DNA from: an uncultured Planctomycetota bacterium
GTDB lineage: Bacteria; Planctomycetota; Planctomycetia; Isosphaerales; Isosphaeraceae
Assembly (NCBI GenBank): GCA_963737655.1
Contig: CAVTTN010000002.1
Span: 5,440,001-5,504,000 of the forward strand
DNA: 64,000 nucleotides
Direction: 5' to 3'
How positions within the stretch are numbered: position 1 is the first letter of the stretch; each line of letters opens with the position of its first letter. The notes under the pieces were generated by a model. It did not search any database. It was not told the origin of the DNA and worked only from the letters and a program-made list of their open reading frames with translations. Position numbers and translations under genes: made by a program. Of this stretch, positions 23,433-59,096 are shown piece after piece.

Positions 23433-23636
23433 TCGCGGGTTGGCGAGAGGAACCGATTTTCCCCAACGGTTCGCGATCGTTAGCAGTCAGGGATTCATAG
23501 ACCCATATAGCCGTCTGTGGAAGCCCGGGAGGGCAACCTTCCCGGGCGACCCTGCCCCTTCCATCTCTGGATTTCCGCTCGTAGGCAAATGGTAATATCA
23601 ATCTCGTTGCGGACACTGAAGAGGCAAGTGCTGACA

Positions 23637-36763: not shown

Positions 36764-37516
36764 ATGACGCCAGTTCCCCAGCTCGAGCGGGTCGATGGCG
36801 AGGGCGCCCTGGACGTCGGCCCGCCGAAGACGGCGGCTCGCGTCTATCGGTATTATGACCTGATCATGGCCGCGTTCGTGACGGTCCTGCTCTGCACCAA
36901 CCTGATCTCGGCGCCGAAGCGGGTGAGCCTCGGCGGGTTCACGTTCGGCGCCGGCGTGTTGTTCTTCCCGATCAGCTACCTGTTCGGAGACATCCTCACC
37001 GAGGTCTACGGCTACGCGAGGTCTCGCAAGGTGGTCTGGGCGGGGTTCGGGGCCCTGGTGTTCGCCACGATCGTGACCCAGGTGGTGCTGAACATGCCGG
37101 CCGACCCGTCGTGGAAGAACCAGGAGGCGTTCAAGGCGGTGTTCGGCGGGACGTGGCGGATCGTCCTGGCGTCGATGATCGGCTATTTCGCCGGGGAGTT
37201 CGTCAACTCGTTCACCCTGGCCAAGATGAAGGTCGCCACGAAGGGCCGGTTCCTCTGGATGAGGACCATCGGCTCGACGATGACCGGCGAGGCGGCCGAT
37301 TCGCTCCTGTTCTACCCCGTGGCGTTCCTCGGGATGCCCAGTTGGCCGGTCGAAAAAGTGCTCACGGTGATGGTCACGAACTACTGTTTGAAGGTAGCTT
37401 GGGAAATCCTGGCCACGCCGATGACGTATGGGATCGTCGGGTTCCTCAAGAAGGCCGAGTCCGAGGATTATTACGATATCCACACCGATTTCACGCCGTT
37501 TTCCCTCAAGACGTAG
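36764..37516 (+). CDS. yhhQ: Queuosine precursor transporter (VUT/YhhQ family)
   Basis: FPISYLFGDILTEVYGY, RIVLAS, GEFVN, LWMRTIGST, DS and TPMTY motifs. Confidence 0.92.
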   Translation: MTPVPQLERVDGEGALDVGPPKTAARVYRYYDLIMAAFVTVLLCTNLISAPKRVSLGGFTFGAGVLFFPISYLFGDILTEVYGYARSRKVVWAGFGALVFATIVTQVVLNMPADPSWKNQEAFKAVFGGTWRIVLASMIGYFAGEFVNSFTLAKMKVATKGRFLWMRTIGSTMTGEAADSLLFYPVAFLGMPSWPVEKVLTVMVTNYCLKVAWEILATPMTYGIVGFLKKAESEDYYDIHTDFTPFSLKT

Positions 37517-37668
37517 GGTGCATGAAATGCACCAACCACGCGGCGGCCACCGGGCCGCCTTCCTTTGTTCGCGTCCCCTGGTTTGGGTGGGTTGGGCGAA
37601 TCGCCCAGGGATCGGTAGGCGGCCCGGTGGCCGCCTCGGGTGAGTTTGGTGCATTTCATGCACCCTAC
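37513..37668. repeat. REP family 1 REPIN-like inverted element
   Basis: GTAGGGTGCATGAAATGCACCA ... TGGTGCATTTCATGCACCCTAC. Confidence 0.92.
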
Positions 37669-37678
37669 GGGTGATCTC

Positions 37679-38247
37679 ATGCTCACACTGCTGATGATGG
37701 TCGTCCTGGAGGGCCCCGCGACGAGCCGTTGCGGGCCGAGCTCAAGGCGATGGTCTCGGCCGATCAGGACGCCCGGAAGGCCGCGATCGCGTCGAAATTC
37801 GAGGACAAGAAGGCCATTGAGGCGATGCAGGCGATCGACCGGAAGAACACGACGAGGCTCAAGGCGATCGTCGAGGAGAAGGGCTGGCCGGGGAAGTCTC
37901 TCGTGGGCGAAGATGGCGCCCACGAGGCCTGGCTCCTGGTCCAGCATGCGGACCTCGACCGCCCGTTCCAGAAGAAATGCCTCGACCTGCTGAAGGAGGC
38001 CGTCGCCAAGGAGGAGGCCAAGGGCTCGGACCTCGCGTACCTGACCGACCGCGTCCTCGTGGCCGAGGGGAAGAAGCAGAGGTACGGGACGCAGTTCGTC
38101 GGCCAGGGGGACGCGATGAAGCCCTCGCCGATCGAGGACGAGGCGAACGTGGACCAACGGCGGAAGGAGGTCGGCCTGGGGACGATGGCCGAATATCGCG
38201 AGCGGCTCCGCCAGGTGTATCGAGCCGACCCGGCCAAGAAACCTTGA
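37679..38247 (+). CDS. DUF6624-type protein (frameshift near 37720)
   Basis: LRAEL...DQDAR, GWPGKSLVG, AWLLVQHAD, AYLTDR, QRYGTQ and VDQRR..VGL motifs. Confidence 0.82.
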
Positions 38248-38277
38248 GAACCCTCGACTCGAACGGAGTCCCCTCCG

Positions 38278-40115
38278 ATGTGCGGAATCGTCGGCTACAC
38301 CGGCCCCCACGAGGCCACCCCGATCCTCCTGGCCGGCCTGCGGAGGCTCGAATATCGCGGATACGACAGCGCGGGCGTTGCGATCGTCGCCGACGGCCGG
38401 ATGGACGTCCGCAAGAAGGCCGGTCGCGTCCGGATGCTCGAAGAGGCGCTCGACCAGGAGCCGCCCGCGGTTCGTGCGGGATGGGCCACACCCGATGGGC
38501 CACCCACGGGCCTCCCAGCGACCGCAACGCCCACCCCCACGTCGGCGGGACCGGCGAGGTCGCCGTCGTCCACAACGGCGTGATCGAGAACCACTCGGCG
38601 CTCCGCAAGGAGCTGGAATCCGAAGGGTTCCGCTTCCACACCCAGACCGATACCGAGGTCGTCGCCCACCTGATCGCCCGCGAGCTCCGCGACGACCCCG
38701 CGAATGACCTGTTCGCGGCCGTCCAGCGCGCGTTGCCCCACCTCGAAGGGACGTATGGGCTGGCCGTCGTCAGCCCGAAATCGCCGGGCCTGATCGTGGG
38801 CGCAAGGCTGGGCAGCCCGCTGGTCGTCGGCGTGGGCGAGGGGGAGCATTTCCTCGCCAGCGACGCCTCGGCGATCGTCCACCACACGCCCGACGTGGCG
38901 TACTTGCAGGATGGCGAGGTCGTCCGCCTCACGCCCGATGACTTCGAGATCCGCCATCGCGAGCGGGGGCCGATCACGCCGAGGATCGACCGCCTCGACT
39001 GGAAGCCCGACGCCGTCGAGCTCGGCGGGTTCACGCACTACATGCAGAAGGAGATCCACGAGCAGCCGGACACCGTCCGCGACGCCTGCCGAGGCCGCCT
39101 CCGCCGGGCCGAGGCCACCGCCCTCTTCGGCGGCCTGAACATGACCGCCCGGCAACTGCGGAGGGTCCGCCGGGTGGTCTTCGCCGCGTGCGGGACGAGC
39201 TGGCACGCGGCCCTCGTGGGCGAATACCTGATCGAGAGGCTGGCGCATCTGCCCGTCGAGGTGGAATACGCGAGCGAATTCCGATATCGGAACGCCCCTC
39301 TGGATGACCGGACGCTCGTGTTCGTCCTCAGCCAGTCCGGCGAGACGGCCGACACCCTGGGCGCCCTCCGAGAGGCGAAGAGGCGAGGGCACCCGACGTT
39401 GGCGATCGTCAACACGGTCGGGAGCACGATCGCGAGGGAGGCCGACGGCGGGATCTATCTCCACGCCGGGCCCGAGGTCGGCGTGGCGAGCACCAAGGCG
39501 TTCTCGGCCCAGGTGATGGTGTTGACCCTGCTCGCCCTCCAGCTCGGCCGGTTGCGGCACCTGCCCTATACCGACGGCCTCGCGGTCCTCGACGCCATCG
39601 AGGCGGCGCCCGAGGCGATCGCCGCCGCCCTGGCCACCGAGCCCGCGGTGATCGAGGCGGCCGAGGCGATCGCCGGGGGGCGGAGCGTCCTCTACCTCGG
39701 CCGGGACCTGCATTACCCGGTCGCCCTGGAAGGGGCGCTGAAGCTCAAGGAGATCAGCTATCTCCACGCCGAGGGCTACCCCACGGCCGAGATGAAGCAC
39801 GGGCCGATCGCCCTGATCGACCCCTCCACGCCGAGCATCTTCATCGCCCCCAAAGGCCCCCTGCACGCCAAGACGCTCAGCAACATCGAGGAAGTCCGGG
39901 CGAGGAAGGGGCCGGTCCTGTCCGTGGGGACCGAGGGAGACGACGCGCTGAGGTCGATCTCCGACCGCTTCCTCTCCATCCCCGACGTCCCCGAGGTCGT
40001 CCAGCCGCTGGTGGCCGTCATCCCGTTGCAGCTTTTGGCGTATCATGTCGCCAGGTTGAGGGGCTGTGACATCGACAAGCCGCGTAATTTGGCCAAGAGC
40101 GTGACGGTGGAGTGA
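38278..40115 (+). CDS. glmS: Glutamine--fructose-6-phosphate transaminase (frameshift near 38475, probable sequencing error)
   Basis: MCGIVG, LEYRGYDSAG, GHTRWATHG, HNGVIEN, SQSGETADT, VASTKAF, EGALKLKE, KHGP and PRNLAKSVTVE motifs. Confidence 0.97.
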
Positions 40116-40260: not shown

Positions 40261-40584
40261 ATGTCCGCCCCGATCGCGACACGCATCAGTAAGAAGACGT
40301 TCGTCGTCAATCGCCAGAATTGCTTCTACGTCCGAGGCAAGAATTTCCTCAAGGCCAGCCTCGTCTCGGTCAAGGCCGACCAGTTCTCCTGGGTCCGGGT
40401 GTGGATGGACCCCGTGATCGACGACGATTGCGTCCTGATCCGGGGGATGCCCCGGTTCAACAACCTCCCTCAGCCGAAGCCGACCTCGACGACCCTCTCC
40501 GACGACCGGATCGTCATCACTCTGGCCGTCGGCGACAACGTCGGCGTCTATGACGTGGATGTGAAGTACAAATTCATCCCCTGA
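40261..40584 (+). CDS. Small single-domain IPT/TIG (Ig-like)-type protein 1
   Basis: GGAGG RBS; APIATRIS...FYVRGKNF...W...LIRGMP...RIVITL...VKY beta-strand pattern; no signal peptide. Confidence 0.6.
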   Translation: MSAPIATRISKKTFVVNRQNCFYVRGKNFLKASLVSVKADQFSWVRVWMDPVIDDDCVLIRGMPRFNNLPQPKPTSTTLSDDRIVITLAVGDNVGVYDVDVKYKFIP

Positions 40585-40618
40585 TCGAATCGCGGCCCCA
40601 AGCCCCGGGAGACGATCC

Positions 40619-40972
40619 ATGAGCGTGCCGAACCCGACCACGTTGACGGCGAAGAATACGGACGCGAAGTACACCTCGGGCTCCGACGGGGTGTTCTGGG
40701 TCGATGGGGACACCTTATTGCCCTATACGTCGATCCAGATCAACGAGACGAAGGCGAGCGGGTGGACCTGGACCGATATCTACATCGATACGGCGGCCTC
40801 GTCCGCGGCCCACCTGGTCGTCCACGCCACGCCGTGGGAGACGATGGGCGGAGGGACCGACGGCGACGAGTCCAAGGACCACCCGTTCCTGCCGGGGGAC
40901 GTGCTGATCGTGGTCAGCAACGACGACGGCGCGAGCACGACCAACCCCCACACCCAGATCACCTATTACTGA
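40619..40972 (+). CDS. Small single-domain IPT/TIG-type protein 2
   Basis: GGAG RBS; VPNPTTL...FWVDGDTL...W...VVHATP...PGDVLIVVSNDDG...ITYY. Confidence 0.68.
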   Translation: MSVPNPTTLTAKNTDAKYTSGSDGVFWVDGDTLLPYTSIQINETKASGWTWTDIYIDTAASSAAHLVVHATPWETMGGGTDGDESKDHPFLPGDVLIVVSNDDGASTTNPHTQITYY

Positions 40973-41068
40973 GCACGAAGCGCCCGATGAGGGCCGATCG
41001 CAGGGCCTCCTCGACGTTCGAGGTGGGCCTCCGCGCGGCCCGTCTATTCCCGGTGAGGAGAACGACCG

Positions 41069-41386
41069 ATGGCCCGGCCCGTCCTCAGCAAGATCGACAG
41101 CAGCACGGACTTTACCTGCGACACGGATACAACAATCCTGATCTCGGGGACCGACCTCGATCACCTCACGGGGGTGGAGATTTCGGCGACCAGTCGGGTG
41201 CACTGGGTGAAGAGTTCGTGGAGCTATCTCCAGAAAAGCAATCAGTTATCCGTCACGGCGATCCCCTGCAAGAGGCACAAGGATGATCTCCTGAAGAAAG
41301 GAGGAGTCCCGGGCGACGTGATCATCGTGGCCAGCAACAACGACGGGTCGGGGACGCTCGGCACCAACGCCACCTACACCGCCTGA
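41069..41386 (+). CDS. Small single-domain IPT/TIG-type protein 3
   Basis: GAGGAG RBS; RPVLSKI...ILISGTDL...W...LSVTAIP...PGDVIIVASNNDG...LGTNATY. Confidence 0.72.
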   Translation: MARPVLSKIDSSTDFTCDTDTTILISGTDLDHLTGVEISATSRVHWVKSSWSYLQKSNQLSVTAIPCKRHKDDLLKKGGVPGDVIIVASNNDGSGTLGTNATYTA

Positions 41387-41488
41387 TCCCGATCCGGGGC
41401 GGAACGGGCCCGGGCGCCCGCCCGTTCGGTGGTTTCGCCCCCGCGTGTCCCCTCTCGCCGAACCCCCCTCCGAAACCGAGGCCCGTCG

Positions 41489-41839
41489 ATGGCTCGCCCG
41501 AAGCTCACCATGATCTCCCCTCTCGATTTTCAGATCGATCAGCCGATCACCTTCACGATCGAAGGGGAGAATCTTGACGCCGTGAATTCCATCCATGTCA
41601 GCTCGACCCTGCCGGTCGATTCGCGAGGCCGAAACGTCGTGCAATGGGCAAGCATTCATATTCAAAATAATATGGACGGGAAAATCCGATGCACGGCGAC
41701 CCCGCACCGGGTCCAGCAGGTGATGGCCGGGTGCGAGGGGGTGCCCGTGGTCGCCGCCTTACCGGGCGACGTGATCGTGGTGGCCGACGGCGGCGGCGGC
41801 TCGGCGACTCTGGGCACCAACGCAACGTATAACGGCTAA
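41489..41839 (+). CDS. Small single-domain IPT/TIG-type protein 4
   Basis: RPKLTMISP...FTIEGENL...W...IRCTATP...PGDVIVVADGGG...LGTNATY. Confidence 0.72.
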   Translation: MARPKLTMISPLDFQIDQPITFTIEGENLDAVNSIHVSSTLPVDSRGRNVVQWASIHIQNNMDGKIRCTATPHRVQQVMAGCEGVPVVAALPGDVIVVADGGGGSATLGTNATYNG

Positions 41840-41907
41840 AATTCCGAACACCCGAGGGGACGGACCCTTCGTCCAGGAAGGGCCCGTCCCATTTCTTGTT
41901 CGGAATT
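41840..41907. terminator. Long hairpin between the convergent IPT4 and kinase A genes (possible bidirectional terminator)
   Basis: aattccgaaca..gggacggacccttc / gaagggcccgtccc..tgttcggaatt. Confidence 0.65.
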
Positions 41908-41908
41908 G

Positions 41909-44572
41909 TCAACGGGCCGGGCCCTTGCCGGACTGGTGTTCTTGTAGGGCCTTGAGGTCGATCGGGCTCTTCGGGTTGGCCGCCAGGACGCGTTGCTGGT
42001 GGCCGATCGCCTCCGAGAGGAGGGCGGAGGCGCGGGCCGCGTCGGGCTCGTGGCCGGCGAGGCGGCCGAGGACCCGGCCCATCAGGCTGTGGTATTCGGT
42101 GTTCCGGTCGTTGTCCTTCAGGAGGGCGCCCAGGAGGCCGCGGGCTTCGTTCAGGTCGGCGAGGGCATCGGCCTTGCGGTCGAGGAGGTCGAGCGTCTCG
42201 GAGCGTCGGAGGAGGACCTCGGCGAGCTCCCGGCGGAAGAAGGTGATCGAGGGCACCTGCGTCTGAAGGTCGCGGAGCCGGGCGACCGCCTGGGTCTGGT
42301 CCTCCAGGGCGGAGGCGCGACGGGCCGGGTCGGCCGAGGCGAACCGGGCGGGCCAGGCCAGGGCCTGGGCCAGACGGTACTGGCGGGCGAGGTCTCGGGG
42401 TTGTTCCTTCGATCGTCGTTCGGCCAGGGCCCGGGTTTTCTGGAAGACGGGGAGGGCGTCGGCCTCTCGGCCGGCTTCGGCGTGGAGGGCCCCGAGGAAC
42501 AAGAGGGCCTCGACCCACTCGTCGCCGTCGGTCACCAGGGCGTCGCCCAGCCCCTCGAACAGACGGGCCCCGTCGGCGGCGGGGGTTTCGGCCTCGCCCG
42601 GCCGTCCGGTCCGGAAGAGGGTGAAGGCCAGGTGGAGCGAGGCCCGGGCCCGGAGCCGGCGGACGTCCGGCGAGTCGCGGACCTCGGGCCGGAGGCGGTC
42701 GGCCACGGCGAGGATCTCGCGATACCGGGGCTCGGCGTCCCCCAGCTTCCCTTCGAGGAAATCCAGGGTCGCGAACTCGCCGAGGACCTCCGCCCGGGCG
42801 ACCTCCAGAGGAGTGGTGTCCCCGGGGTGGTTCCGTCGCAAGAAATCCAGGGGCAGGAGCGCGTCATTGAGGAGCGAGCGGGCCACGCCGATCTGGTCGG
42901 TGATCCTCCGGAGGTTCGCCAGCCGGCGATAGGTCCGCGAGACCTCGACCTGCATCGGGATGCTGGTCCGGCCGAGCTTCTTGAGCTCGCGGACGTGATT
43001 CTGGGCTCGGTTCGCGAACTTTTCGCGGGTGTTCTGGCCCTGGGCGTCTCGCCCCAGGTCGATCTCGGCGATGCCGAAGATCTCGTCCAGCAGCTTCGCG
43101 TCCTCTCGGGCGAGCGTCTCGATCTCGTTCCGGGCGTTGACGGCCTCCTGCCTCTTCTCCTCGGTCCGGCCCTTCTCCCGGTAGATCAGGGCCGAGCCGA
43201 TCCCCAGGGCGAGGACCGAGGCGACCAGCAGGACGATCGTCCCGGCCACGGCCGGCTGATGGTGCCGGGCCCATCGGGCGGCCCGGGCGGGCCACGGCTC
43301 GCGGAGGGCGGACACCGGCTCGTCGGCCAGCCATCGTCGGACCTCCTCGCCCACCTCCTTCGCCGTCTCGTACCGCCTCTCGGGCTGCGGGTCCATCGCC
43401 TTCAGGCAGATCGCCTCCAGGGCCGGCGGGATCGAGCCGTCCAGCGACCGCGGCGACGGCGGCCTCGCCTCGATCGCCAGGCGGATCACCTCCGCCGAGC
43501 TCCCGCCGTCGTACGGCGGCCTGCCGGTGAGGACCAGGTACAGAAGGGCGCCGAGGCCGAAGACGTCGCTTCGCTGGTTGATGCGCGGGCGGTCTCCGGC
43601 GGCCTGCTCCGGCGGCATGTAGTTGGGCGTGCCGATCGCCTGGCCCGGCTCGGTCGCCCCTCGCGTGGAGTCCGGCCCGCGGTCCTCGCCCGGCGCCGCC
43701 TCGGCCAGAGGGTCGTCGGGCCGGTCGAGCCGCTTGGCCAGGCCCCAGTCGAGCACCACCACCTCGCCATACGGCCCCAGCGCCACGTTCTGGCCCTTGA
43801 TGTCCCGGTGGATCACCCCCCGCGAGTGCGCGAACGCCACCGCGTTGCTGACCGCGACGAACGACTCGAGAAGGACGCGCAAACCGGCCTTCGTGGCCCC
43901 GGGGTCGAGCTTCCCGGCGTGGTGGTCGCGGACGGCGTCCTTGAGCGTCTTTTTGCCCAGGAGCCTCATGCTGTAGAACGGCCGTTCGGTCCACTCGGAC
44001 AGGTCGTGGACCGGGACGATGTTGGGGTGCTCCAGCGAGGCGGCGACCCGGGCTTCCTCGAGGAATCGGGCCTCCAGGCCGGGCGAGAGGGCGCGGTCGG
44101 GCCTCAGGTCCTTGACGGCGACCTCCCGGCCGAGGACCGAGTCCCACGCCCGCCAGACCCGGCCCAGGCCGCCTCCGGCGTGGAACACCGGATCGCGATA
44201 CCTGGAGCCGAACTCCTGGTCGTTCCCCCCGAGATCGCCCGCCCCCTCGGCGGCGTGGCCGTCGATCGTGGGGAGCTGCGACAGGGCGATGTCGCCGGAG
44301 TCGGACGGGTCGGGACGATCCTCGACCAGGCCGAGGCGGCCGTCTCCCCCGGGGGCGACCGTGCTTCGAGCGGCCCCGTTGGTCTCCTGGAGGGCGTGCT
44401 CGACGGTCGAGACCTCCTCGTCGGACAGCCATCGGTGCTCGGCGAGGACCTCGGCCAGCGTGCTCGACGGCCGGGACAGCCATTGCTCGACGGCCTCGGC
44501 CAGTTGGCTCGGGTCGATCAGCCCCTTCTTCAGCGCGAGCAGGCCGAAACGGAGGTTGCGGTCGGCGTCCAT
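41909..44572 (-). CDS. Membrane Ser/Thr protein kinase with C-terminal TPR region (kinase A)
   Basis: GGGLGRV, VAVK, RFLEEA, LEHPNIV, HRDIKGQN, DWG, GTPNYMPPEQ, SDVFGLG; TM after WARHH; TPR-like helices. Confidence 0.93.
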   Translation of the reverse strand: MDADRNLRFGLLALKKGLIDPSQLAEAVEQWLSRPSSTLAEVLAEHRWLSDEEVSTVEHALQETNGAARSTVAPGGDGRLGLVEDRPDPSDSGDIALSQLPTIDGHAAEGAGDLGGNDQEFGSRYRDPVFHAGGGLGRVWRAWDSVLGREVAVKDLRPDRALSPGLEARFLEEARVAASLEHPNIVPVHDLSEWTERPFYSMRLLGKKTLKDAVRDHHAGKLDPGATKAGLRVLLESFVAVSNAVAFAHSRGVIHRDIKGQNVALGPYGEVVVLDWGLAKRLDRPDDPLAEAAPGEDRGPDSTRGATEPGQAIGTPNYMPPEQAAGDRPRINQRSDVFGLGALLYLVLTGRPPYDGGSSAEVIRLAIEARPPSPRSLDGSIPPALEAICLKAMDPQPERRYETAKEVGEEVRRWLADEPVSALREPWPARAARWARHHQPAVAGTIVLLVASVLALGIGSALIYREKGRTEEKRQEAVNARNEIETLAREDAKLLDEIFGIAEIDLGRDAQGQNTREKFANRAQNHVRELKKLGRTSIPMQVEVSRTYRRLANLRRITDQIGVARSLLNDALLPLDFLRRNHPGDTTPLEVARAEVLGEFATLDFLEGKLGDAEPRYREILAVADRLRPEVRDSPDVRRLRARASLHLAFTLFRTGRPGEAETPAADGARLFEGLGDALVTDGDEWVEALLFLGALHAEAGREADALPVFQKTRALAERRSKEQPRDLARQYRLAQALAWPARFASADPARRASALEDQTQAVARLRDLQTQVPSITFFRRELAEVLLRRSETLDLLDRKADALADLNEARGLLGALLKDNDRNTEYHSLMGRVLGRLAGHEPDAARASALLSEAIGHQQRVLAANPKSPIDLKALQEHQSGKGPAR

Positions 44573-44783
44573 CGTCGGCTCCCACCGGCCCCAAACGGGT
44601 CTCGATCCGATCGCGGAGGTTACGAGAGTAAACGAGCCGACGCTCCGCCGCAATCGGCAGAAAACGGCCGAATTTCCTTGATTCGGGCGAGGCGCAGCCC
44701 TTACGGTAGTTTCGGGCGGCGACGAGGCCGCCCGCGCTTCGAGTTCCAGTGAGATCGAGCAACCGATTGACCGGGAGGGTCCC

Positions 44784-45542
44784 ATGCCAGCGCCGGGTGT
44801 GTATTACTTCGTCGTGAGGAATGGGTGTCTGCTCGCCAGCGAGACGGGCCGCGAGAACCCGATCGTAATCTATGGACATGGGTTCGACCCGGTCTCCGCC
44901 CATTTCAAGGTCCACGGCGAAGGGATCGACTTCCACGACTTCAAGGCCCTCGTGGTCACCGACGCGGAGTTCCACGGGTCGTTCGTAGCCCAGATCTGCA
45001 AGGGCGAGAATCTCCCGGCCTCGGTGAGTCTGAAGGTGTGGGTCTCCAACGGCCACGGCCAACGGAGCCAGGATACCGACGTCGTCGCCCTGCACGACGC
45101 CGCCGCCTCTCCGTCGGACGGGGAGTTCGATGAGGACGGCCCCGAGTCCGTCGGGCGGAGGCCGCAGGACCGCCGGCGCGTCGTCACGAACCCCTGTACC
45201 GTCACGTTCTCCATGCCCCCCTCAGACCAGATCGTCTACGGGACCGACGCGACCCCGCAGGACAATAACATCCGCATCGAAGGCGAGAACTTCCAGTCCA
45301 CGGACACGTTCACCTGCTCTTCGTTGGTCGCCAACCTGAGTGCACCGAAGGTCACCTCGAACGACGGTTACACGATCATGGGTAAGTTCAAGGCGGGCTC
45401 GGGGTACGGCAGCGGCGACATGACGGTGACGGTCACCAACTGCAACACGGCGGTCCGCCACGGCGTTTCCACCAGGGCCGCACAAACCCAGCTTTCCTCC
45501 GAGGAGGAGATCCTCGTGGTCGAGGTTGAGGACGGCCGTTGA
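44784..45542 (+). CDS. Two-domain IPT/TIG-type protein 5
   Basis: GGAGG RBS; PAPGV...IVIYGHGF...LKVWVSNG, then IRIEGENF...GDMTVTVTN; no signal peptide. Confidence 0.68.
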   Translation: MPAPGVYYFVVRNGCLLASETGRENPIVIYGHGFDPVSAHFKVHGEGIDFHDFKALVVTDAEFHGSFVAQICKGENLPASVSLKVWVSNGHGQRSQDTDVVALHDAAASPSDGEFDEDGPESVGRRPQDRRRVVTNPCTVTFSMPPSDQIVYGTDATPQDNNIRIEGENFQSTDTFTCSSLVANLSAPKVTSNDGYTIMGKFKAGSGYGSGDMTVTVTNCNTAVRHGVSTRAAQTQLSSEEEILVVEVEDGR

Positions 45543-45581
45543 AGACGCTCCCCCGGACCCCTTCCCGCGAGGTTCCCACCC

Positions 45582-46316
45582 ATGCCCGCGCCTGTCGTTA
45601 GCGGTTTCACGGTCAACTCCGGGACGCTGGTCGCCTCGCCGACCGGATCGACCAACACGATCACGATCTTCGGGTCGAATTTCGACCTGGCGGACTCGAC
45701 GTTCAAGCTCACCGGAGGGGGCGTCGCGTTCTCGGGCTACGTCGTCACGTCCCGGACGGCGATGCAGATCAAGGGCACGTTCCTGGCCTCGGTGGCGTCG
45801 TCGCCGTCGCCGTCGCCGGGCTTCCTGATGGGGACGAGCTCGGATGCCGACCTGGTGGTGACCGTCACCAACGGGTCGAGCAGCCTGGACCAGCCCACCC
45901 CGGTGGCGGTGCCGACGGTCCACCCGGTCTTCCCGGAGGACGAAGTTTATCCCAGGGTGGCCGGGGGCAGTCCCGGCAACTCGTTCTCCCTGAACGGGGC
46001 CGTCCCCCCGGCCACGGGGACGCTCAATTATTCGACCATGGCCCCGGCGGCGAATAACTCGGTGACGATCACCGGCTCGGGCTTCGGCGCGTCGCCGGGC
46101 GGTTCGCTGTCGTGCTCGGCCGGCGGGTTCACGTTCTCGACGCCGGCGGTCGCATCGTGGTCCGATACCCAGATCCGCGCGAGCTTCACGGCGATGAAGG
46201 CCGGGCCGAACGAGTACAACGACTCCGACCTGACGATCACGGTCACCAACGGCGCGGGCATCCCGATCCTGGAGCAGGTCCCGACGAAGCTGGTCAACCC
46301 GCCGGGCAATGCCTGA
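45582..46316 (+). CDS. Two-domain IPT/TIG-type protein 6
   Basis: PAPVVSGF...TITIFGSNF...DLVVTVTNG, then SVTITGSGFG...SWSDTQI...DLTITVTNG (classic IPT signature). Confidence 0.8.
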   Translation: MPAPVVSGFTVNSGTLVASPTGSTNTITIFGSNFDLADSTFKLTGGGVAFSGYVVTSRTAMQIKGTFLASVASSPSPSPGFLMGTSSDADLVVTVTNGSSSLDQPTPVAVPTVHPVFPEDEVYPRVAGGSPGNSFSLNGAVPPATGTLNYSTMAPAANNSVTITGSGFGASPGGSLSCSAGGFTFSTPAVASWSDTQIRASFTAMKAGPNEYNDSDLTITVTNGAGIPILEQVPTKLVNPPGNA

Positions 46317-46331
46317 AGTCCGCCGCGGGGT

Positions 46332-48964
46332 TCATGGACCCGGCGGCGTCGGCCCGAGGCGGCGGAGGTCTTCCTCGATCCTCTGGGCGGTGGCGCGGTC
46401 CTCGGGGTCGGCCGGCTGGAGTTGGAGGGCCTTCGCCTCCTGGAGCCAGGCGGAGGCGCGATCGGTCCGGTGGAGGTCCAGGGCCAGGCGGGCCCGGGCC
46501 TCCAGGGCCCGGGCGAGCTCGCCGTCGAGGGTGCGGACCTTGGGGAAACGAACGCGGAGGTCCTTCAGCATCTCGGCCTCTCGGCGGAACTCGTCGTCGG
46601 CCGCCTCGGGCTGGCCCGAGTCGATCAAGAGCCGGCCCTTGTCGTCGTGGGCCTGGGCCAGGTTCAGGCGGAAGTGGATCACCTGCGGCCTGTCCTCGAC
46701 GATCGCGGCGATCTCCCCGATCGCCCGGTCGAACAGTCCGCTCGCCTCGGCCCGGGAGGCCGGCTGAAGGGCCAGGGCCCGGCCGAGCTCCACTCGGGAC
46801 ATGGCCAGGAGGAACCGGACGTCCACGCCCGGGGCGCCCCGGGCCGCCTCGGACTCCGCCCAGGCCAGGGCGCGGCGGAGCATCCTGGCCGAGTCGTCGA
46901 GCCGGCCCTCGGAACGGTAGATCGCGCCCCTCTCCTTCAGGCTCAGGGCGGCCACGAGCCGATAGGGCCTGTCCGGGGAGTCCAGGTCCGGCAGGAGCCG
47001 CTCCAGGGCCTGGTCCATCAGGGCACCGGCCTCGGCGGCGCGGCCCTGGCGAGTGAGCAGGCTGGCCCGGTGGGCCAGGATCCGCCCCTCGGTCCGGCGG
47101 TAGTTGGGTTCGTCGGGGATGAACCGCCGGAGCTCGCCGATGATCGCGCCGGCCTGGCGATACTCCTCGGCGGCGGCGGCGCGATCGCCTTTGCGGTCCC
47201 ACATCGTGCCGAACTCCAGGTGGAGCTCGGCCAGGCGGTCGCGGTCCCCGGGGGTCATCTGGTCCTCCGGGGCGATCTCCCTGGCCAGCCGGATGGCCTC
47301 GAAGTAGTCGATCCGGGCGAGGTCGAACTCGAAGGTCATCCGGTGGAGGTTCCCGGCTTCGAGGAAGAAGTTCAGGGCGACCTTCTTGACCCGGGCATCC
47401 TCGTCATTGAGCTGCGTCAGGGCCTTGCCGACCCGGGCGAGCCGGTTGGCGACCTGGGTGCGGACGCCCTCGGCGTCGGGCAGCAGAGGCAAGTTCTCGC
47501 GGAGCAGGCCGAGCGTCTCGGACAGGCCATCGAGCGAGGAGTGGAGGGTGCCCACGGCGGCCTTGCGGGACTCGTCCGCCCGGTAAGCCGCGTCGCTGGC
47601 CTTCTGCGTCTCCAGGCCGAGCCGCCAGGCCCCCAGGGCCAGGGCGACCGTCGCCGTGATCAGGATGGCCGTGCTCCCGGCCATCATCGACTGGTGATGC
47701 CTCGCCCACCGCGCCGCCCTGTCGATCATCCGGCCCGGGTACGCTTCGACCGGCTCGTCGGCCAGCCATCGTCGGACCTCCTCGCCCACCTCCTTCGCCG
47801 TCTCGTACCGCCTCTCGGGCTGCGGGTCCATCGCCTTCAGGCAGATCGCCTCCAGGGCCGGCGGGATCGAGCCGTCCAGCGACCGCGGCGACGGCGGCCT
47901 CGCCTCGATCGCCAGGCGGATCACCTCCGCCGAGCTCCCGCCGTCGTACGGCGGCCTGCCGGTGAGGACCAGGTACAGAAGGGCCCCCAGGCCGAAGACG
48001 TCGCTTCGCTCGCCGATCCGCGGGCGGTCTCCGGCGGCCTGCTCCGGCGGCATGTAGTTGGGCGTGCCGATCGCCTGGCCCGGCTCGGTCGCCCCTCGCG
48101 TGGAGTCCGGCCCGCGGTCCTCGCCCGGCGCCGCCTCGGCCAGAGGGTCGTCGGGCCGGTCGAGCCGCTTGGCCAGGCCCCAGTCGAGCACGACCACCTC
48201 GCCATACGGCCCCAACGCCACGTTCTGGCCCTTGATGTCCCGGTGGATCACCCCCCGCGAGTGCGCGAACGCCACCGCGTTGCTGACCGCGACGAACGAC
48301 TCGAGCAACGCCCGGAGCCCCTTCGCCGAGCGCCCCCGCCGTCCTTGCGGTGGTGGTCGCGGACGGCGTCCTTGAGCGTCCGGTCCCCCAGGAGCCTCAT
48401 GCTGTAGAACGGCCGTTCGGTCCACTCGGACAGGTCGTGGACCGGGACGATGTTGGGGTGCTCCAGTCCCGCCGTCACCCGGGCTTCCTCCAGGAATCGG
48501 GCCGCCAGGCCGGGGGTGAAGGCGCGTTCGGGCCGGAGGTCTTTCAGGGCGACCTCCCGGCCGAGGACCGAGTCCCACGCCCGCCAGACCCGGCCGAGCC
48601 CTCCGCAGGCGTGGAGCCTCAGGTCGCGATAGCGCGAGCCGAAGCCCCGGCCGTCGGCCTCGTCGTCCAGGCCGGCGGCGACCGCCGACCCGCCCGAGGG
48701 AGACCAGTCCTTCGTGGATAACTCCGAGGGGGAGTCGGCCCGGGACGAGTCGTCGGGATGGGTGGATCGGCCCTCGTCGTCGAGCTCATGCTCCACGGTC
48801 GAGACCTCCTCGTCGCTCAGCCAGCCGCGATCCCCAAGGACCTGGGCGAGCGGTCGCTCCGGGCAGGCCAGCCAGTCCTCTCCGGCCTCGACCAGTTGTC
48901 CCGGATCGATCAGGCCCCGGCGGACGGCCATCAGGCCGAATCGGAAGTTGCGGTCGGCGTCCAT
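46332..48964 (-). CDS. Membrane Ser/Thr protein kinase with C-terminal TPR region (kinase B; frameshift near 48335)
   Basis: Same MDADRN start and kinase motifs as kinase A; TM after WARHH; divergent TPR region. Confidence 0.9.
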
Positions 48965-49454: not shown

Positions 49455-50732
49455 ATGACGGGTCCCAATCGTCGGACGTTCCTCGCCAGCGCCGGCTCGG
49501 GGGCCGCGGCCCTGGCGCTGCCCTCGCTGGCCCGAGCTTCCGTCGGGCCGAATGACCGGATTCACGTCGCCGTCCTGGGCATCCGCAGCCGGGGGCAGTC
49601 GCACATCGACGCCTTCACCAAGCACAAGGAGACCGCCGTCGTCGCCCTGGTCGACCCGGACAGCCGCCTCTTCGCCGGGTCGAGCAAGAAGGTCGAGGAC
49701 CGCTCGGGCAAGGCCCCTCAGCTCGTCTCGGACCTCCGGCGGATCATGGACGACAAGGCCATCGACGTCGTCTCGATCGCCACGCCCAACCACTGGCACG
49801 CGCTGGCCTCCGTCTGGGCGATCCAGGCCGGCAAGGATGTTTACGTGGAGAAGCCGGTCAGTCATAACGTCAGCGAGGGGCGGAAGATCGCCGACGCCGC
49901 GAAGACGCACAACCGGATCGTCCAGGCCGGGACGCAGAACCGCTCGTCCGAGGGCGTGAAGTCGGCGATGGAGTTCCTCCACTCGGGCAAGCTCGGCAAG
50001 GTCTACCTGGCCAAGGGCCTCTGCTACAAGAGGCGCGACTCGATCGGCCACAAGGCGGATGCGCCGGTGCCCGAGGGGGTCGATTACAACGTCTGGCTCG
50101 GCCCCGCGCCGGAGAAGCCGTTCAACCCGAACCGCTTCCACTACGAATGGCACTGGAACTGGGACTACGGCGGGGGGGACATCGCCAACCAGGGCATCCA
50201 CCAGATGGACCTCGCCCGCTGGGGCCTGAACAAGGGGCTGCCCGACCACATCGTCTCCTCGGGCGGCCGATACGGCTACCAGGACGACGGCGAGACGCCC
50301 AACACGCAGGTCGCCGCGTTCAAGTACGACGATTGCCTCCTGGAATTCGAGGTCCGCGGCCTGCCCACCAACGCCGAATCCGGCGTGAAGGTCGGCAACC
50401 TGTTCTACGGGACAGAAGGCGTGCTCGTCCTGAACGAAGGCAAGTGGGAGACATTCCTCGGCCACAAGAACGAGCCCGGACCCAAAGGCCAGGGCCACGG
50501 AGGCGGCGACCACTTCGCCAACTTCATCGAGGCCGTCAAGGCGCGAGACCCGAAAAAGCTAAACGCGGAGGTCGTCGAGGGGCACCTCTCCAGCGCCCTC
50601 TGCCACCTCGCGAACATCTCCTACCGCCTCGGCCGCGCCCTGAAGTTCGACCCCAAGGCCGAAAACTTCGGCGGAGACTCTGAGGCGAACGCCATGCTGA
50701 CCCGAGAATATCGGTCGCCGTTCGCGATGTAG
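49455..50732 (+). CDS. Gfo/Idh/MocA oxidoreductase with Tat signal
   Basis: NRRTFL, ATPNHWH, DVYVEKP, GTQNRS, WLGPAP and NQGIHQMD motifs. Confidence 0.94.
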   Translation: MTGPNRRTFLASAGSGAAALALPSLARASVGPNDRIHVAVLGIRSRGQSHIDAFTKHKETAVVALVDPDSRLFAGSSKKVEDRSGKAPQLVSDLRRIMDDKAIDVVSIATPNHWHALASVWAIQAGKDVYVEKPVSHNVSEGRKIADAAKTHNRIVQAGTQNRSSEGVKSAMEFLHSGKLGKVYLAKGLCYKRRDSIGHKADAPVPEGVDYNVWLGPAPEKPFNPNRFHYEWHWNWDYGGGDIANQGIHQMDLARWGLNKGLPDHIVSSGGRYGYQDDGETPNTQVAAFKYDDCLLEFEVRGLPTNAESGVKVGNLFYGTEGVLVLNEGKWETFLGHKNEPGPKGQGHGGGDHFANFIEAVKARDPKKLNAEVVEGHLSSALCHLANISYRLGRALKFDPKAENFGGDSEANAMLTREYRSPFAM

Positions 50733-50898
50733 GGTGCATGAAATGCACCACCCACAATGCGGCGGGCCTCGCCCGCCTCCCGCTCTCGACCACGCCTCAT
50801 AAGGGCCATTCTGGAGCAAGGTAGGCGGGCGAGGCCCGCCGCATTGTGGGTGGTGCATTTCATGCACCCTACACGACGGTGCATTTCATGCACCCTGC
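50729..50898. repeat. REP family 1 REPIN-like element with an extra tandem arm
   Basis: Inverted arms plus a third copy ggtgcatttcatgcaccctgc after a 5-nt spacer. Confidence 0.92.
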
Positions 50899-50899
50899 A

Positions 50900-51940
50900 T
50901 CACTTCTTCGCCCAGGGGCTTTGCGGATAGAGCTGCTTGAGCCGCTCGTGGACCTCGGCGGCCCGGCCGTCCTGCTTGATCTCGGTGAAGAGCTGCTCGA
51001 TCATGGCCAGGGCCCGGGGGTGCTGCTCCTTGTCCTTATCGAAGAGGACGTCGGTCTTCAGGTAGGCGAGGAGGGCGTCTTTCCTCCGGCCGGCGGCCCG
51101 GTAGCAATCGCCCAGGGTGTTGTGGGCGAGGGCCTGGACGTCGGCGGCCTCGGGCGGGGCCTCCTTGATGACCTCCTGGACGTTCGCCAGGGCGTCGTCG
51201 TACTTCTTCTGCATGACGAGCGCCTCGGCCTTGGCGAGCTTGGCCTCGCGGGCCTGGGCCGAGCCCTTGGGGGCGGTCAGCAAGATCTTGTCGAGCCCGG
51301 CGATGGCCAGGTCGGGCTTGCCCGACTTCGCCTGGACCCTCGCCTTCAGGACTCCGACCCGGCCCGAGGCGGTCGTGACCTTCTCCGAAAGCTGAGAGAG
51401 GGCGGCGTCGGCCTTCGCGGTCTCCCCTTTCTGGAGGCTCAGGCGGATGATGAGCTCCAGGGCCGGGCCGAGCTGGCGGGCGTTCGGGGCGGACTTGACG
51501 AAGGCGTCGAGCTCCTCCAGGGCCGAGGCCGCCTTGGTCGGGTCGGCCAGCGCCTCCTCGGCCAGGATGTTCGCCCTCTTGAACCGGGCGGACTGGGCGA
51601 TGTAGGGCTTGGTGGCGGCCTCGGTGGCGGCCTTCTTGTAGAGGTCGGCGGCGTCCTTGAGCTGGCCGTTGTTCTCGCGGGTCTCGGCCAGGGCGTAGCT
51701 CGGCGGGGCGCCGTCATAGGTCACGTCGGCGATCTGATCGACGGGGACGAGCTGATCGGCGCCGACGGCCGGCTTGATCTTCACCTCGGCGGGGGTCTCC
51801 GTGGAGATCTGCCCGCGGATTCGCCCGCCTGCGGCCTTGACGGTGGAATTGGGGATCAGCACGATTTCATCGGCCAGCGCGAGGGTCGAGAGGCCGACGG
51901 TCAGGCCGAGGGACAGGCACGCGGCGGTTCGCCGAGTCAT
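50900..51940 (-). CDS. Secreted TPR protein
   Basis: Signal peptide ending ALA-DE; TPR helices; AHNTLGDCY, ALLAYLKTDVLF and LKQLYPQSPW. Confidence 0.85.
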   Translation of the reverse strand: MTRRTAACLSLGLTVGLSTLALADEIVLIPNSTVKAAGGRIRGQISTETPAEVKIKPAVGADQLVPVDQIADVTYDGAPPSYALAETRENNGQLKDAADLYKKAATEAATKPYIAQSARFKRANILAEEALADPTKAASALEELDAFVKSAPNARQLGPALELIIRLSLQKGETAKADAALSQLSEKVTTASGRVGVLKARVQAKSGKPDLAIAGLDKILLTAPKGSAQAREAKLAKAEALVMQKKYDDALANVQEVIKEAPPEAADVQALAHNTLGDCYRAAGRRKDALLAYLKTDVLFDKDKEQHPRALAMIEQLFTEIKQDGRAAEVHERLKQLYPQSPWAKK

Positions 51941-51995
51941 GACGGGGGGTCCTTGGGTCGGTTTTTCGGGCGAGGCCGGTCCTCGCCGAGTTCCA

Positions 51996-52037
51996 CCCTC
52001 TCCCCCGAAGCAAGCGGGGGAGAGGGCGTCCAGAAGC
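51996..52037. repeat. REP family 4 hairpin (CCCTCTCCCCC..GGGGGAGAGGG)
   Basis: ccctctcccccgaagcaagcgggggagagggcgtccagaagc; similar to the copy at 60026. Confidence 0.7.
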
Positions 52038-52063
52038 CGATTCCGCGGCGGGTGAGGCCCGCG

Positions 52064-54869
52064 TTATTTGCCCAGCTCCTTCAGGAGGCCGACGTACTTG
52101 GCCTTCATCTCGGGCTTGCCGACCGACGGGCTGAGCTTCATCACGCGTTCGAGGCTGGTCACGGCCTCGGCCCGGCGTCCCTGGCCGGTCTGGGCGATGG
52201 CCATGTGGTACACGCTGTCGTAATACTCCAGGGGCTTGGTCCGGTAGCGGCTGAGGTCGGCGACCCGCTCCTTCCAGTAGGCGAAGGCGACGTTCCACCG
52301 CTCCAGGCTCCGTTCGGCGCGGGCCCAGTCCTCGTACAGGAAGCCCTTCTCCATCATCAGGGTGAGGTCGCGCGGGCTGGCGGTCAGGAGTTCCTTGTCG
52401 AGCGCCAGGGCGTCCTCGAACTTGTTGGCCTCGCGGAGGGCCACGGCCTTCTTGTACTTGAGATAGGCGAGGCTGGTGGCGGCCTTGGGGTCCTTGAGGA
52501 ACTCGGGGTCCTTGCCGAACCGGGTGAGCATGGAGTCGAACACGGGGACGGCCTCCGCCCCCATGCCCATCTCGATCATGGCGCTGCCGGCGAAGAGGAG
52601 GGACTGGTACGTCTGGCCCGACTGGCTGGTCGCCAGGGCCGTGAGGAACTTCTTGAACGACTCGCGGGTCTTCTTGTAGCCGACGGCGTCATTCCGGGCC
52701 TTCTGGGCCTCCATGTCCTCCTTCAAACGCATGGTCAGGTCGTAATACAGGCCGGTGAGCTTCTCCTTGGTGCTCCCGGCCTTTTCCAGAGTCTTGAGGT
52801 CGGCGATGGCCCGGTCGGTCTGGCCGTCGCCGAGGTGGGCCTTGAGCAGGATCGTCACGAGCGCCTCGTACAGCGGGGCGAGCTCGGCCGACTGCGACGC
52901 CCCGGCCAGGGTCTTCTCCAGGGGTTCGAGGAGGGCGAGCGCCTCCTTCGGCTTGCCCGTGGCGCGGAGGATCTCGGCCACGTCGGTCGAGTTGCGGACC
53001 AGGGCCGGGTCGGTGGCCGGGGCCCCGGCCTTCTTGCGGGCCTCCAGGGCCGAGGATTCGAGGTCCAGCGCCGCCTTGCCCTGGGCCTCGGCCTCGGACC
53101 CCTTGTCCTCCTCGCGGAGCTTCTGGGCGAGCCTCCAGAGCGCCTCCCCGGCCATCATCTGGGCGTCGAGCCGGCGGGGGGACTCGGCCCGGACTCCTTC
53201 ATACGACTTCGCCGCCCTCACGTACTCCTGGCGGCCGAAATAGATCTCCCCGAGGGTGACGCGGGCGGCGTCTCCCTGGTCCTTGTCGCTCCAGGTCTCG
53301 GCGGCGAAGGAGGCGAGGTCGATCAGGCGGTCGAGGTCGCTCGTCCGGTCGATCTCCACATACGTGTTGTACGCCATCGTCAGGGCCGCGATGCCGATAT
53401 CGACGGCCTTCAAGGACCATTCGTCCTGGGGATACCGCCGGACGAGGTGATCGCAGATCGCGGCGGCGGAATAGTACCTCTGGGCCGAGTATTCGCAGTA
53501 GGCGAGGAAGTAGCGGGCCTTGTTCGCCTTGGCGGGTTCCCGGGCGGGGTCGGCCCTCTTGATGGCCTGCTGGAACAGCTTGATGGCGCGGTCCCATTCG
53601 TGGGTGCTCATCGCCGAATCGGCCTGGGCCATCGCCTCGTCATACGTCATGGCGGCGATCTGGCGGTCGTCGACGTCGCCGCCGATCTTGAACTTGTCGC
53701 GGATCTCCTTGCGGAGGACCAGGGCCTCGGCCTTGTACGGCGAGAAGTAGCGGACGACCTCATCCAGCCGCGCCAGGGCCTTGCGGGCGGCCTCCTTCTG
53801 GTCCTTCTCGTTGAGCTCGTCGAGCTGGGCCTTCAGGGCCCGGGCCAATTCGAGCTGGACGCCCAGGCCGGACTCGCTGGAGAGATACCGAGGGTTGTCC
53901 TGGAGCCATCGGGCGGCCTCGTCCACCGCGAGGGCATACTCCTTCCTCTTGTTATCGACGATGATCCGGAAGAAGCCGATCCGCCGCCTCATCTCGTTGT
54001 AGATGGGGTCGTTCATCGGCTGGGCGAAGAGCTCGTTGTAGATGCCCATCGCCGGGCCGAGCTCCCCTTTTTCCTCGTAGCACTTGCCCTGGAGCATCCG
54101 GGCGGAGAGGCCGGCGAGCTGCGACCGGTAGTCCTTGTACACGATCTCGAACGCGGCGATGGCCTTGTCCAGGAGGTCGTTCCTCTCCTTCGAGCCGAGC
54201 GGCCAGGACTGCGCGTCCTCGTAATCGACCACCGTCCTCTGGAGGCGGGCGTCCATCAGGGCGGTGTGCGGCGCGCTCCTTCGAGTCCTTCGCCGGGTTC
54301 CCCTCGGGGATGAATTTTGGGAAGGACTCGAACGCCTTCTGCAAGAGGGGCAACGCGCGCTCGTAGGCGGCGCGGGCCTCGACGAACGAGGCGCGGGCGG
54401 AGGTCAGCTTGGCCTTCTCCTCGGCCCCCTTGAGATCGCGGGACTGGACGAGGTCGGTATGCCCCCGCTCGACGAACAAGCGGGCGAGCTGCGTGAGGGC
54501 CTCGGGCGTGAGCGGGTGATCGGGGTTCTTGCGGGCGAACTCGTCGAGCTTCGCGCGGGCCGAGTCCAGGAGGGCCGTCTTGGTCTCCAGGTTGTTGGAG
54601 ACGGTCGCCTCTTCCAGGAGCCCCCGGCCGACCTGGTAATCGAGCGTGACCTTCAAGTCGGCGGGCGCGGCGGGGTCTTTGCGGAGGCTTTCGAGGTACT
54701 CCAGGGCGAGGTCATGATAGCCCCGTTCGCGCAAGCCCTGGGCGAACTTCAGGGCCTGGCGGGCCTCGGGCGACATCTCGTCGGCGGCCCGGACGAGCGA
54801 AGGAGCCAGGAAACCGGCCGCCACGACGGCCCAAAGCCCGGCGAGCGAGGCGCGACGGGGCATCTTCAT
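52064..54869 (-). CDS. Large secreted TPR protein (frameshift near 54270)
   Basis: Signal peptide ending VRA-ADE; FAQGLRERGYHDLALEYL; continuous TPR-like helices across two frames. Confidence 0.82.
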
Positions 54870-54995
54870 GAGGAGGCTCCGGGGCGAGACGGGGCGTCCC
54901 CGGGGCCGGTCCGAACTCGTCCCGGCCCCCCGGGGCCGCGTGTGTCGAGAGCGTGGATGCGTTCGATCCAATCTACGGCGCCCGGAGGGGCCTCG

Positions 54996-58907: not shown

Positions 58908-58929
58908 AGATCGACGGATAAAACCGCCT

Positions 58930-59096
58930 GTCGGGTGCATGAAATGCACCAACCTCGCGGCGGCCCCCGGGCCGCCCACCTTTTGCCCTCCTCGTTCGAT
59001 CGCCCAGGGAGGAGCAAGCGGGAGGCGGCCCGGGGGCCGCCGCGAGGTTGGTGCAGTTCATGCACCCGACATCACGGCGCATTTCATGCACCCTAC
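58930..59096. repeat. REP family 1 REPIN-like element (GTCG variant) with an extra tandem arm
   Basis: gtcgggtgcatgaaatgcacc ... ggtgcagttcatgcacccgac atcac ggcgcatttcatgcaccctac. Confidence 0.9.

Follow-up and report, generated by a model that had tools for sequence, protein, structure and literature searches.

Kinase-TPR genes paired with stand-alone Ig-like genes in a planctomycete: a candidate receptor-ligand system

A 64,000-nucleotide stretch of an uncultured planctomycete genome (family Isosphaeraceae; assembly GCA_963737655.1, contig CAVTTN010000002.1, positions 5,440,001 to 5,504,000), hereafter the window, carries a module of six small plus-strand genes (g1-g6) and two minus-strand kinase genes (kinases A and B), bracketed by glmS and an oxidoreductase gene. 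The small genes encode leaderless, predicted immunoglobulin (Ig)-like proteins of the IPT/TIG type, and the kinase genes encode Hanks-type Ser/Thr kinases with a single transmembrane (TM) helix followed by tetratricopeptide repeats (TPR). The kinases represent a known planctomycete class and the small proteins a known fold; the pairing of the two is conserved and apparently undescribed. At related loci the partner goes with the type of the TM-TPR tail, not with the kinase domain, and we lean towards reading each gene pair as a receptor and its cognate ligand or ligand precursor. The layout, the six plus-strand genes and their positions are as the first-pass annotation of this DNA had described them, according to the open reading frame (ORF) map.

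The catalytic domains of partnered kinases range from 32% to 96% identity, and the length of the TM-TPR tail is uniform (1,355-1,491 bp in 16 of 16 partnered kinases, setting aside one gene truncated by a contig end). When loci were chosen by kinase similarity, an IPT-type partner was present in three of 19, among the matches listed. A profile of the tail gave more than 250 matches; 66 non-seed matches were examined, six of them being dropped for having less than 600 bp downstream, and the first convergent ORF was scored with a motif matrix derived from the IPT alignment (threshold at least 8). The threshold was reached opposite 16 of 36 receptors that end with the profile, i.e. have a tail of the same length, versus none of 24 with longer tails, and the latter form a separate clade on a quick tail tree (SH-aLRT 100). 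Inspection by eye raised the number of same-length tails with a partner to 28 of 36, eight of the additional partners carrying a GTGxG version of the motif and four a more divergent version. The pairing was seen in three families, the window's own and two others, which account for four of the partnered loci. Among the 103 kinase loci of the window's own genome only A and B score, which is circular for these two, and none of the other 101 does. The TPR tails of G000 and G082 do not pair by partner type (single versus double IPT) and are about 25-35% identical throughout. Other kinase-TM-TPR genes (L037, L039, L040, L044, L140, L142) face beta-proteins with a signal peptide, possibly a sister class of receptor and partner; some of these partners have PEP-CTERM-like ends, recognised by eye at L140 and also in its orthologue L142.

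The same association is found when one starts from the partner, as the first-pass annotation had anticipated. A search with g6 in 120 genomes of the family gave two matches, both facing a kinase-TM-TPR gene. In G082, a genome of the same genus, glmS is followed by one two-unit gene, a kinase, three single-unit genes and a second kinase, and in G051, from another genus, the module also lies after glmS. It is thus present at this site in three genomes, and it is absent from the 1.5 kb after glmS in four others that were checked. Twelve further stand-alone IPT loci were collected, with the long-repeat proteins at G026, G030 and G043 left out of the count; two of them stop at a contig end and, of the ten that are readable, six face a kinase-TM-TPR gene. 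Stand-alone IPT genes with no kinase downstream (L113-L116, one orthologous locus in three genomes and a pair in G084) may be orphan ligands or have another role. An IPT-like ORF with an N-terminal hydrophobic segment faces the end of a TPR-rich gene (L056:339-824), and another of 167 aa, with a similar segment, is cut by a contig end (L120).

Partners at these loci take three forms: leaderless IPT proteins as in the window; beta-rich proteins of 160-240 aa with a signal-peptide-like start (hydropathy 2.4-2.9); and peptides of about 65 aa that consist of an export-type N-terminus, a variable linker and a conserved C-terminus, GTG(K)GIVIIT(S). The sole element common to all of them is an 11-residue segment that comprises the end of the EF loop and strand F of the IPT fold, G-[TS]-G-x-[G/hydrophobic]-x-hydrophobic-x-hydrophobic-T-[N/S]. 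At one locus (L152) a leaderless and a signal-peptide partner adjoin, both with HGTG(S/T)GT(I/V)VYTD. In profile comparison the peptide form aligns with the signal-peptide form over 11 columns (E 1.5e-5). On the tail tree the receptors of signal-peptide and peptide partners form one clade (SH-aLRT 95) in which the peptide receptors are nested, and the receptors of leaderless IPT proteins, A and B included, lie outside it in poorly resolved positions.

The tiny peptides begin with a match to RRLxxExLExRxLLA, a presumed planctomycete export signal (PMC8567305). Since neither Pfam nor NCBIfam matched a tiny peptide or the signal-peptide partners, the motif was tested with a profile built from 31 proteins of this genome: all seven intact peptides tested scored 7-16 bits, the maximum among 900 shuffles was 6.7, and none of the 46 rows of the IPT alignment scored. 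A DNA pattern for the peptide C-terminus, run against all GTDB genomes, gave eight matches, all in Planctomycetota and all facing a kinase with the tail; four are new and four are the loci that inspired the pattern. The motif is the extreme C-terminus in seven of the eight and internal in one, a signal-peptide protein (DGTGKGIIIITK, L201, which is the L178 protein). Upstream of the tiny-peptide genes at L196, L197, L199, L202 and L203 there is a conserved DNA element of about 130 nt, a candidate extracytoplasmic function (ECF) sigma factor promoter or leader RNA. At several tiny-peptide loci the peptide gene also has two divergent neighbours, a second kinase and an ECF-like gene; ECF-like ORFs were recognised by eye at L111, L117, L196-L198, L200 and L202.

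Motif identity is 0.48 within modules versus 0.26 between them, and at matched background identity the values are 0.49 (14 pairs) versus 0.25 (214 pairs); three wrongly picked ORFs, M12_a and S_G024 were excluded from these statistics. The module-specific divergence that had been proposed for the window is supported.

The first module consists of four single-unit genes and kinase A. The 107-aa product of g1 (40261..40584, +) is the most divergent unit (E 6.6e-5 with a profile built without its own genome); its nearest ESM Atlas clusters are TIG at 0.89-0.90, which is weak evidence. It is followed by g2 (40619..40972, +; 117 aa; motif LPGDVLIVVSN at 40889-40921), g3 (41069..41386, +; 105 aa; motif VPGDVIIVASN at 41306-41338, strand E80-90 in the g3 model) and g4 (41489..41839, +; 116 aa; motif LPGDVIVVADG at 41759-41791), which ends 70 bp from the kinase A stop. 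The second module has two genes with two units each, which brings the number of IPT/TIG-like units to eight: g5 (44784..45542, +; 252 aa), divergent from the kinase A start with a gap of 211 bp, and g6 (45582..46316, +; 244 aa; motifs SDADLVVTVTN and NDSDLTITVTN), which ends 16 bp from the kinase B stop. Identity is 36% between g3 and g4 and 30% across 234 aa between g5 and g6. The register of the motif is PGDV(L/I)(I/V)V(V/A) in g2-g4 and xD(L/M)xVTVTN-like in three of the four g5/g6 units. Each gene has its own spacer and a purine-rich stretch resembling a ribosome-binding site (RBS) 5-11 nt upstream, and g6 recurs on a separate contig of 3.6 kb as a copy of equal length that differs by one substitution. 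The reported lack of signal peptides was confirmed (best 11-mer hydropathy 0.4-1.3 versus 2.4-2.9 in exported relatives), and g1-g6 have neither the N-terminal signal peptide nor the C-terminal PEP-TM-basic tail of PEP-CTERM proteins. A scan for promoters and terminators between the convergent genes gave nothing above chance.

An IPT profile built from 38 homologues, none from this genome, picks exactly g1-g6 among the 32,807 ORFs of the genome (E 1e-21 to 7e-5; next match 0.049). The AlphaFold2 (AF2) model of g3 on a 46-row alignment is an all-beta sandwich (pLDDT 92) with structural matches to the IPT domains of SGBP-B, Met, EBF, plexin, NF-kB and Sec5 (Z 7.0-8.2), tied or mixed with other Ig-like folds at Z 7-8. 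The IPT-type Ig-like E-set fold suggested by the first-pass annotation is thus supported for g3 by the model, and for the other units it is predicted by profile homology only. AF2 on the single g6 sequence reached a pLDDT of only 33, and a PDB sequence search with the first alignment gave no significant match. The Pfam TIG family (PF01833, cut-off 20.9 bits) is approached by g6 (20.5 bits, E 4.8e-4) and g4 (16.1 bits, E 0.011), the other four give no match, and the family member P0047 clears the cut-off at 35.3 bits. The window proteins share with PF01833 the fold and an N-terminal P...I-x-G-x-N-F pattern; they differ from it in being leaderless stand-alone proteins, in having a conserved Trp and in their EF loop, which is long and variable.

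When 1.84 billion representatives were searched with a profile, 115 matched. These comprise long multi-IPT proteins together with single-unit proteins of 98-131 aa (about 35) and two-unit proteins (about ten). The single-unit homologues start with M-x-x-P and mostly finish near a Tyr, and none of the 41 single-unit proteins of the alignment has a signal-peptide-like start. Ten homologues that were looked up are unnamed or "hypothetical" and fall in 90%-identity clusters of one or two members. Among 400 genomes of the phylum, mostly of other families, all 13 profile matches lie inside ORFs of 366-4,213 aa; the stand-alone matches came from the window's own family. No relative of P0043 was found in metagenome contigs. 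The ESM Atlas matches of g3 are TIG clusters at 0.93 and include stand-alone IPT/TIG clusters of 96-98 aa, commonest in Acidobacteriota where the phylum is known.

Kinase A (41909..44572, -; 887 aa) is intact. Its kinase domain (about 43298-44200, -; Pkinase, E 1.6e-26) has the catalytic motifs VAVK, HRDIK, DWG and PPE, and the single TM helix (about 43184-43240, -; hydropathy 2.49) is followed by a coiled segment and a TPR ectodomain (TPR_12). Kinase B (46332..48964, -) has the same architecture; Pkinase is above cut-off in both, which together with the one TM helix identifies them as Hanks-type membrane Ser/Thr kinases. The TPR ectodomain measures about 420 aa and the TM-TPR tail about 470 aa; the single TM helix, and the description of this kinase class in PMC11032199, suggest that the TPR region is periplasmic. 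The N-terminus of kinase A (44378-44572, -) has a degenerate tandem MshEN-like motif that is common to many such kinases, a possible c-di-GMP input; NF053729 scores 15.8 bits here against a cut-off of 38, and the motif stays a lead.

Kinase B had been taken for a single intact gene, and this did not hold: its frame shifts near 48340 at a run of five G. The shift is probably an assembly error because glmS and seven of the 103 kinase domains in the assembly are split likewise; in glmS (37977-40115) the break lies near 38480-38580. The sole return of a protein search with kinase B was the product of its own assembly, not an independent full-length copy. By blastn, a C-lobe tract of kinase A (43314-43868) is about 98-99% DNA-identical to 47749-48303 in kinase B. 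It stops just short of the TM helix, and protein identity between the two tails is only about 26%. The tract may reflect gene conversion or a polishing artefact, and it fits recombination through the kinase domain that moves the TPR end and the partner genes as one cassette. The two kinases of G082 have no near-identical tract and are 61% identical.

Three roles had been offered for the small proteins, and of these we favour ligands of the TPR region, because the partner follows the tail type and because related loci swap in exported proteins or propeptides in which one motif persists. With the peptide and signal-peptide forms in view, the small proteins look more like ligand precursors than like free Ig domains. 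The window would accordingly hold two tandem receptor-ligand gene pairs, in each of which a single-pass kinase would expose its TPR ectodomain to the periplasm and the convergent genes would encode its cognate ligands or their precursors. The 11-residue segment, whose conservation is observed, would be the element that is recognised. By analogy with RRNPP receptors, the TPR groove probably takes it up as an extended peptide, because at related loci it is the free C-terminus of an exported propeptide of about 65 aa. Leaderless IPT proteins would reach the ectodomain only by unconventional export or by leakage across a damaged inner membrane, which is the weakest step, and would probably be unfolded or clipped before recognition. 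Ligand binding would then activate the kinase, which would probably phosphorylate an ECF sigma factor as its output, as the ECF-like neighbours at related loci suggest; no ECF gene lies beside the module among the flanking ORFs in the window. The tail-to-tail gene order would keep the variable TPR 3' end beside its ligand genes. A predicted complex between the L193 receptor ectodomain and its own C-terminal propeptide part scored 0.02, had no controls and is not used either way.

More speculatively, this could be a eukaryote-style receptor-kinase/polypeptide-ligand system. In its widespread form a cytoplasmic Ig-like protein would conceal the signal as one of its buried strands, and this protein would come into contact with the periplasmic TPR receptor only upon a breach of the inner membrane or of a neighbouring cell. 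Such a self-encoded damage alarm would exist in strain-specific versions, and signal-peptide carriers and finally minimal secreted peptide pheromones would have evolved from it within one receptor family. We put forward this fuller scenario as a tentative one.

Several observations weigh against the ligand reading. The window proteins have no export signal, and the motif of g1 is unlike that of g2-g4. Among the 36 same-length tails six are partnerless and two face PEP-CTERM proteins; four of the ten readable IPT loci have no kinase, three of these being one orthologous locus in one genus. The division into short and long tails was drawn after the data had been seen, and the genomes are related and hence non-independent. 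The tail profile separates kinases A and B (230 and 225 bits) little from unpartnered tails of the same genome (213, 184 and 174 bits). A direct hhalign comparison of the tiny peptides with the IPT family is non-significant (E 0.29), and the signal-peptide form matches IPT at E 0.0095 over 17 columns that cover the motif only (best single sequence 14 bits). The link from IPT to peptide, which would run via the signal-peptide forms, thus rests on a short motif and is a weak joint. Furthermore, a G-x-x-V-x-V-T-N strand is a generic structural feature of IPT domains, so that conservation of the motif in these proteins may be structural, and strand F is an inner strand of the sheet in the IPT topology and therefore buried in the folded protein.

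The partner genes could instead be regulated outputs: the kinase would, via an ECF sigma factor, switch on small envelope or beta-sandwich genes whose products make no contact with the TPR region. At several related loci an ECF-like gene lies upstream of the kinase or divergent from the partner, ECF groups associated with kinases are established (PMC7826278), the tiny-peptide genes share the conserved upstream element, and PEP-CTERM-like genes stand opposite other kinase-TPR genes. This explanation leaves open why one 11-mer is kept across leaderless, signal-peptide and 65-aa forms, why the motif is module-specific and why the partner follows the ectodomain type, and the window lacks an adjacent ECF gene. 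We regard it as rather unlikely on its own; the two models can coexist, as positive feedback.

Another of the roles first offered, in which the leaderless IPT proteins would serve the kinase domain in the cytoplasm as its substrates or adaptors, draws on their lack of export signals, on the Ser+Thr content of g2, g3 and g6 (24-25%) and on the use of IPT domains as cytoplasmic interaction modules (Sec5 and NF-kB are among the structural matches of g3). However, the C-lobes of A and B are nearly identical while their partner sets differ, partners track the tail rather than the kinase clade, and a kinase in the cytoplasm would be out of reach for the exported and peptide forms found at homologous loci; we therefore disfavour this role and consider it unlikely.

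We found no specific support for the third role, in phage conflict. The partners might be antagonists, decoys or immunity proteins that silence a harmful kinase, or the module might sense phage Ig-like proteins. The locus is accessory and fast-changing, as its presence after glmS in some genomes and absence there in others indicates, all ten homologues looked up fall in the small clusters described above, and phages carry IPT/Ig proteins. On the other hand, the adjacent genes include no toxin, nuclease, TIR or STAND gene (PADLOC was not searched), the convergent arrangement is unlike an effector-immunity operon, and signalling is a better fit for exported propeptides, all of which makes a conflict pair improbable. 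Lastly, the assembly does have real indel errors (kinase B, glmS and the split kinase domains), but that the six ORFs are fragments of one broken surface-protein gene is highly implausible given their separate RBS-like sites and spacers, the same length of g6 on an independent contig, the stand-alone homologues with their common start and mostly a Tyr near the end, and the recurrence of the layout in other genomes, so that the view of them as genuine stand-alone genes stands.

It is instructive to set the proposed receptor-ligand pairs beside known systems. In RRNPP(A) systems (Rap-Phr, PlcR-PapR, Rgg-SHP, AimR-AimP) a TPR-type receptor is encoded next to a gene for an exported propeptide of 50-120 aa, the mature signal is usually C-terminal, specificity is cognate and signals are duplicated (PMC11343458). 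The tiny partners at related loci match this plan. The RRNPP(A) receptors are, however, cytoplasmic proteins of Bacillota with an N-terminal DNA- or protein-binding domain and need the peptide to be re-imported, whereas here the TPR region belongs to a membrane Hanks kinase, as its ectodomain, the bacterium has two membranes and the genes are convergent. The window has no adjacent propeptide gene, its motif lying inside a leaderless IPT domain, and the propeptides of related loci have the planctomycete export motif, not a Sec signal. By analogy, the system may amount to RRNPP-type signalling transferred to a membrane Hanks kinase, yet it falls outside RRNPP.

Kinases A and B belong to a class of planctomycete membrane Ser/Thr kinases with a cytoplasmic kinase domain, one TM helix and TPRs predicted to be periplasmic, the function of the TPRs being mostly unknown; the available text of PMC11032199 names no ligand or linked gene for this class, and the partner proteins described here are candidate ligands for one of its subfamilies. 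Kinase-activated ECF systems (ECF43, ECF59-62, ECF217; EcfP-PknT, EcfK-PknS), for which direct phosphorylation is the proposed mode (PMC7826278, PMC13147305), likewise have a Hanks kinase beside an ECF gene, as do several related loci; the available text describes no linked ligand gene for them, and in the window no ECF gene is adjacent. In polymorphic toxin-immunity systems an exported toxin with a variable C-terminal toxic domain is followed by a co-directional immunity gene, whereas here the variable part is the TPR ectodomain and the partner genes are convergent.

Plant PROPEPs are precursors of damage signals and lack a signal peptide, and in the S-locus pair SCR-SRK a variable ligand is linked to its receptor. 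PROPEP-PEPR and SCR-SRK resemble the present pairs, by analogy only, in combining a receptor kinase with a polypeptide ligand, and the unconventional export or post-damage leakage proposed for the leaderless IPT proteins can be likened to PROPEPs. The ectodomains (LRR, S-domain) and the ligands are unrelated, and no homology is claimed. A literature search covering main texts and a few subscription papers found no description of the kinase-TPR/partner system, and the available part of PMC8195603 holds nothing relevant to it. The pairing of kinase and partner genes points to a candidate, undescribed peptide-signal system that resembles plant and animal receptor-ligand pairs.

Elsewhere in the window, a cluster of exported TPR-like proteins (50900-54971, -) flanks the module and is syntenic in G082 and G051; its longer gene is split near 54256-53952. 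The segment 23001-27000 has a GC content of 0.58-0.62 versus about 0.69 and carries a 929-aa ORF (23517-26306); it was possibly acquired. An intergenic repeat near 37500-37700, 50540-50900 and 58900-59070, and elsewhere, translates to MKCT... and VHFMHP... and is probably REP- or MITE-like.

In planctomycetes, membrane Ser/Thr kinases with TPR ectodomains can number in the hundreds, and no ligand is known for them. The present analysis names candidate ligands for one subfamily of these kinases, among them an 11-residue peptide that can be synthesised, and the receptor-ligand question is therefore directly testable. If the reading is true, it would give a two-membrane bacterium a receptor-kinase/peptide-ligand system that differs both from RRNPP and from the histidine-kinase pheromone receptors, and it would provide an evolutionary series that leads from a folded Ig domain to a minimal pheromone.

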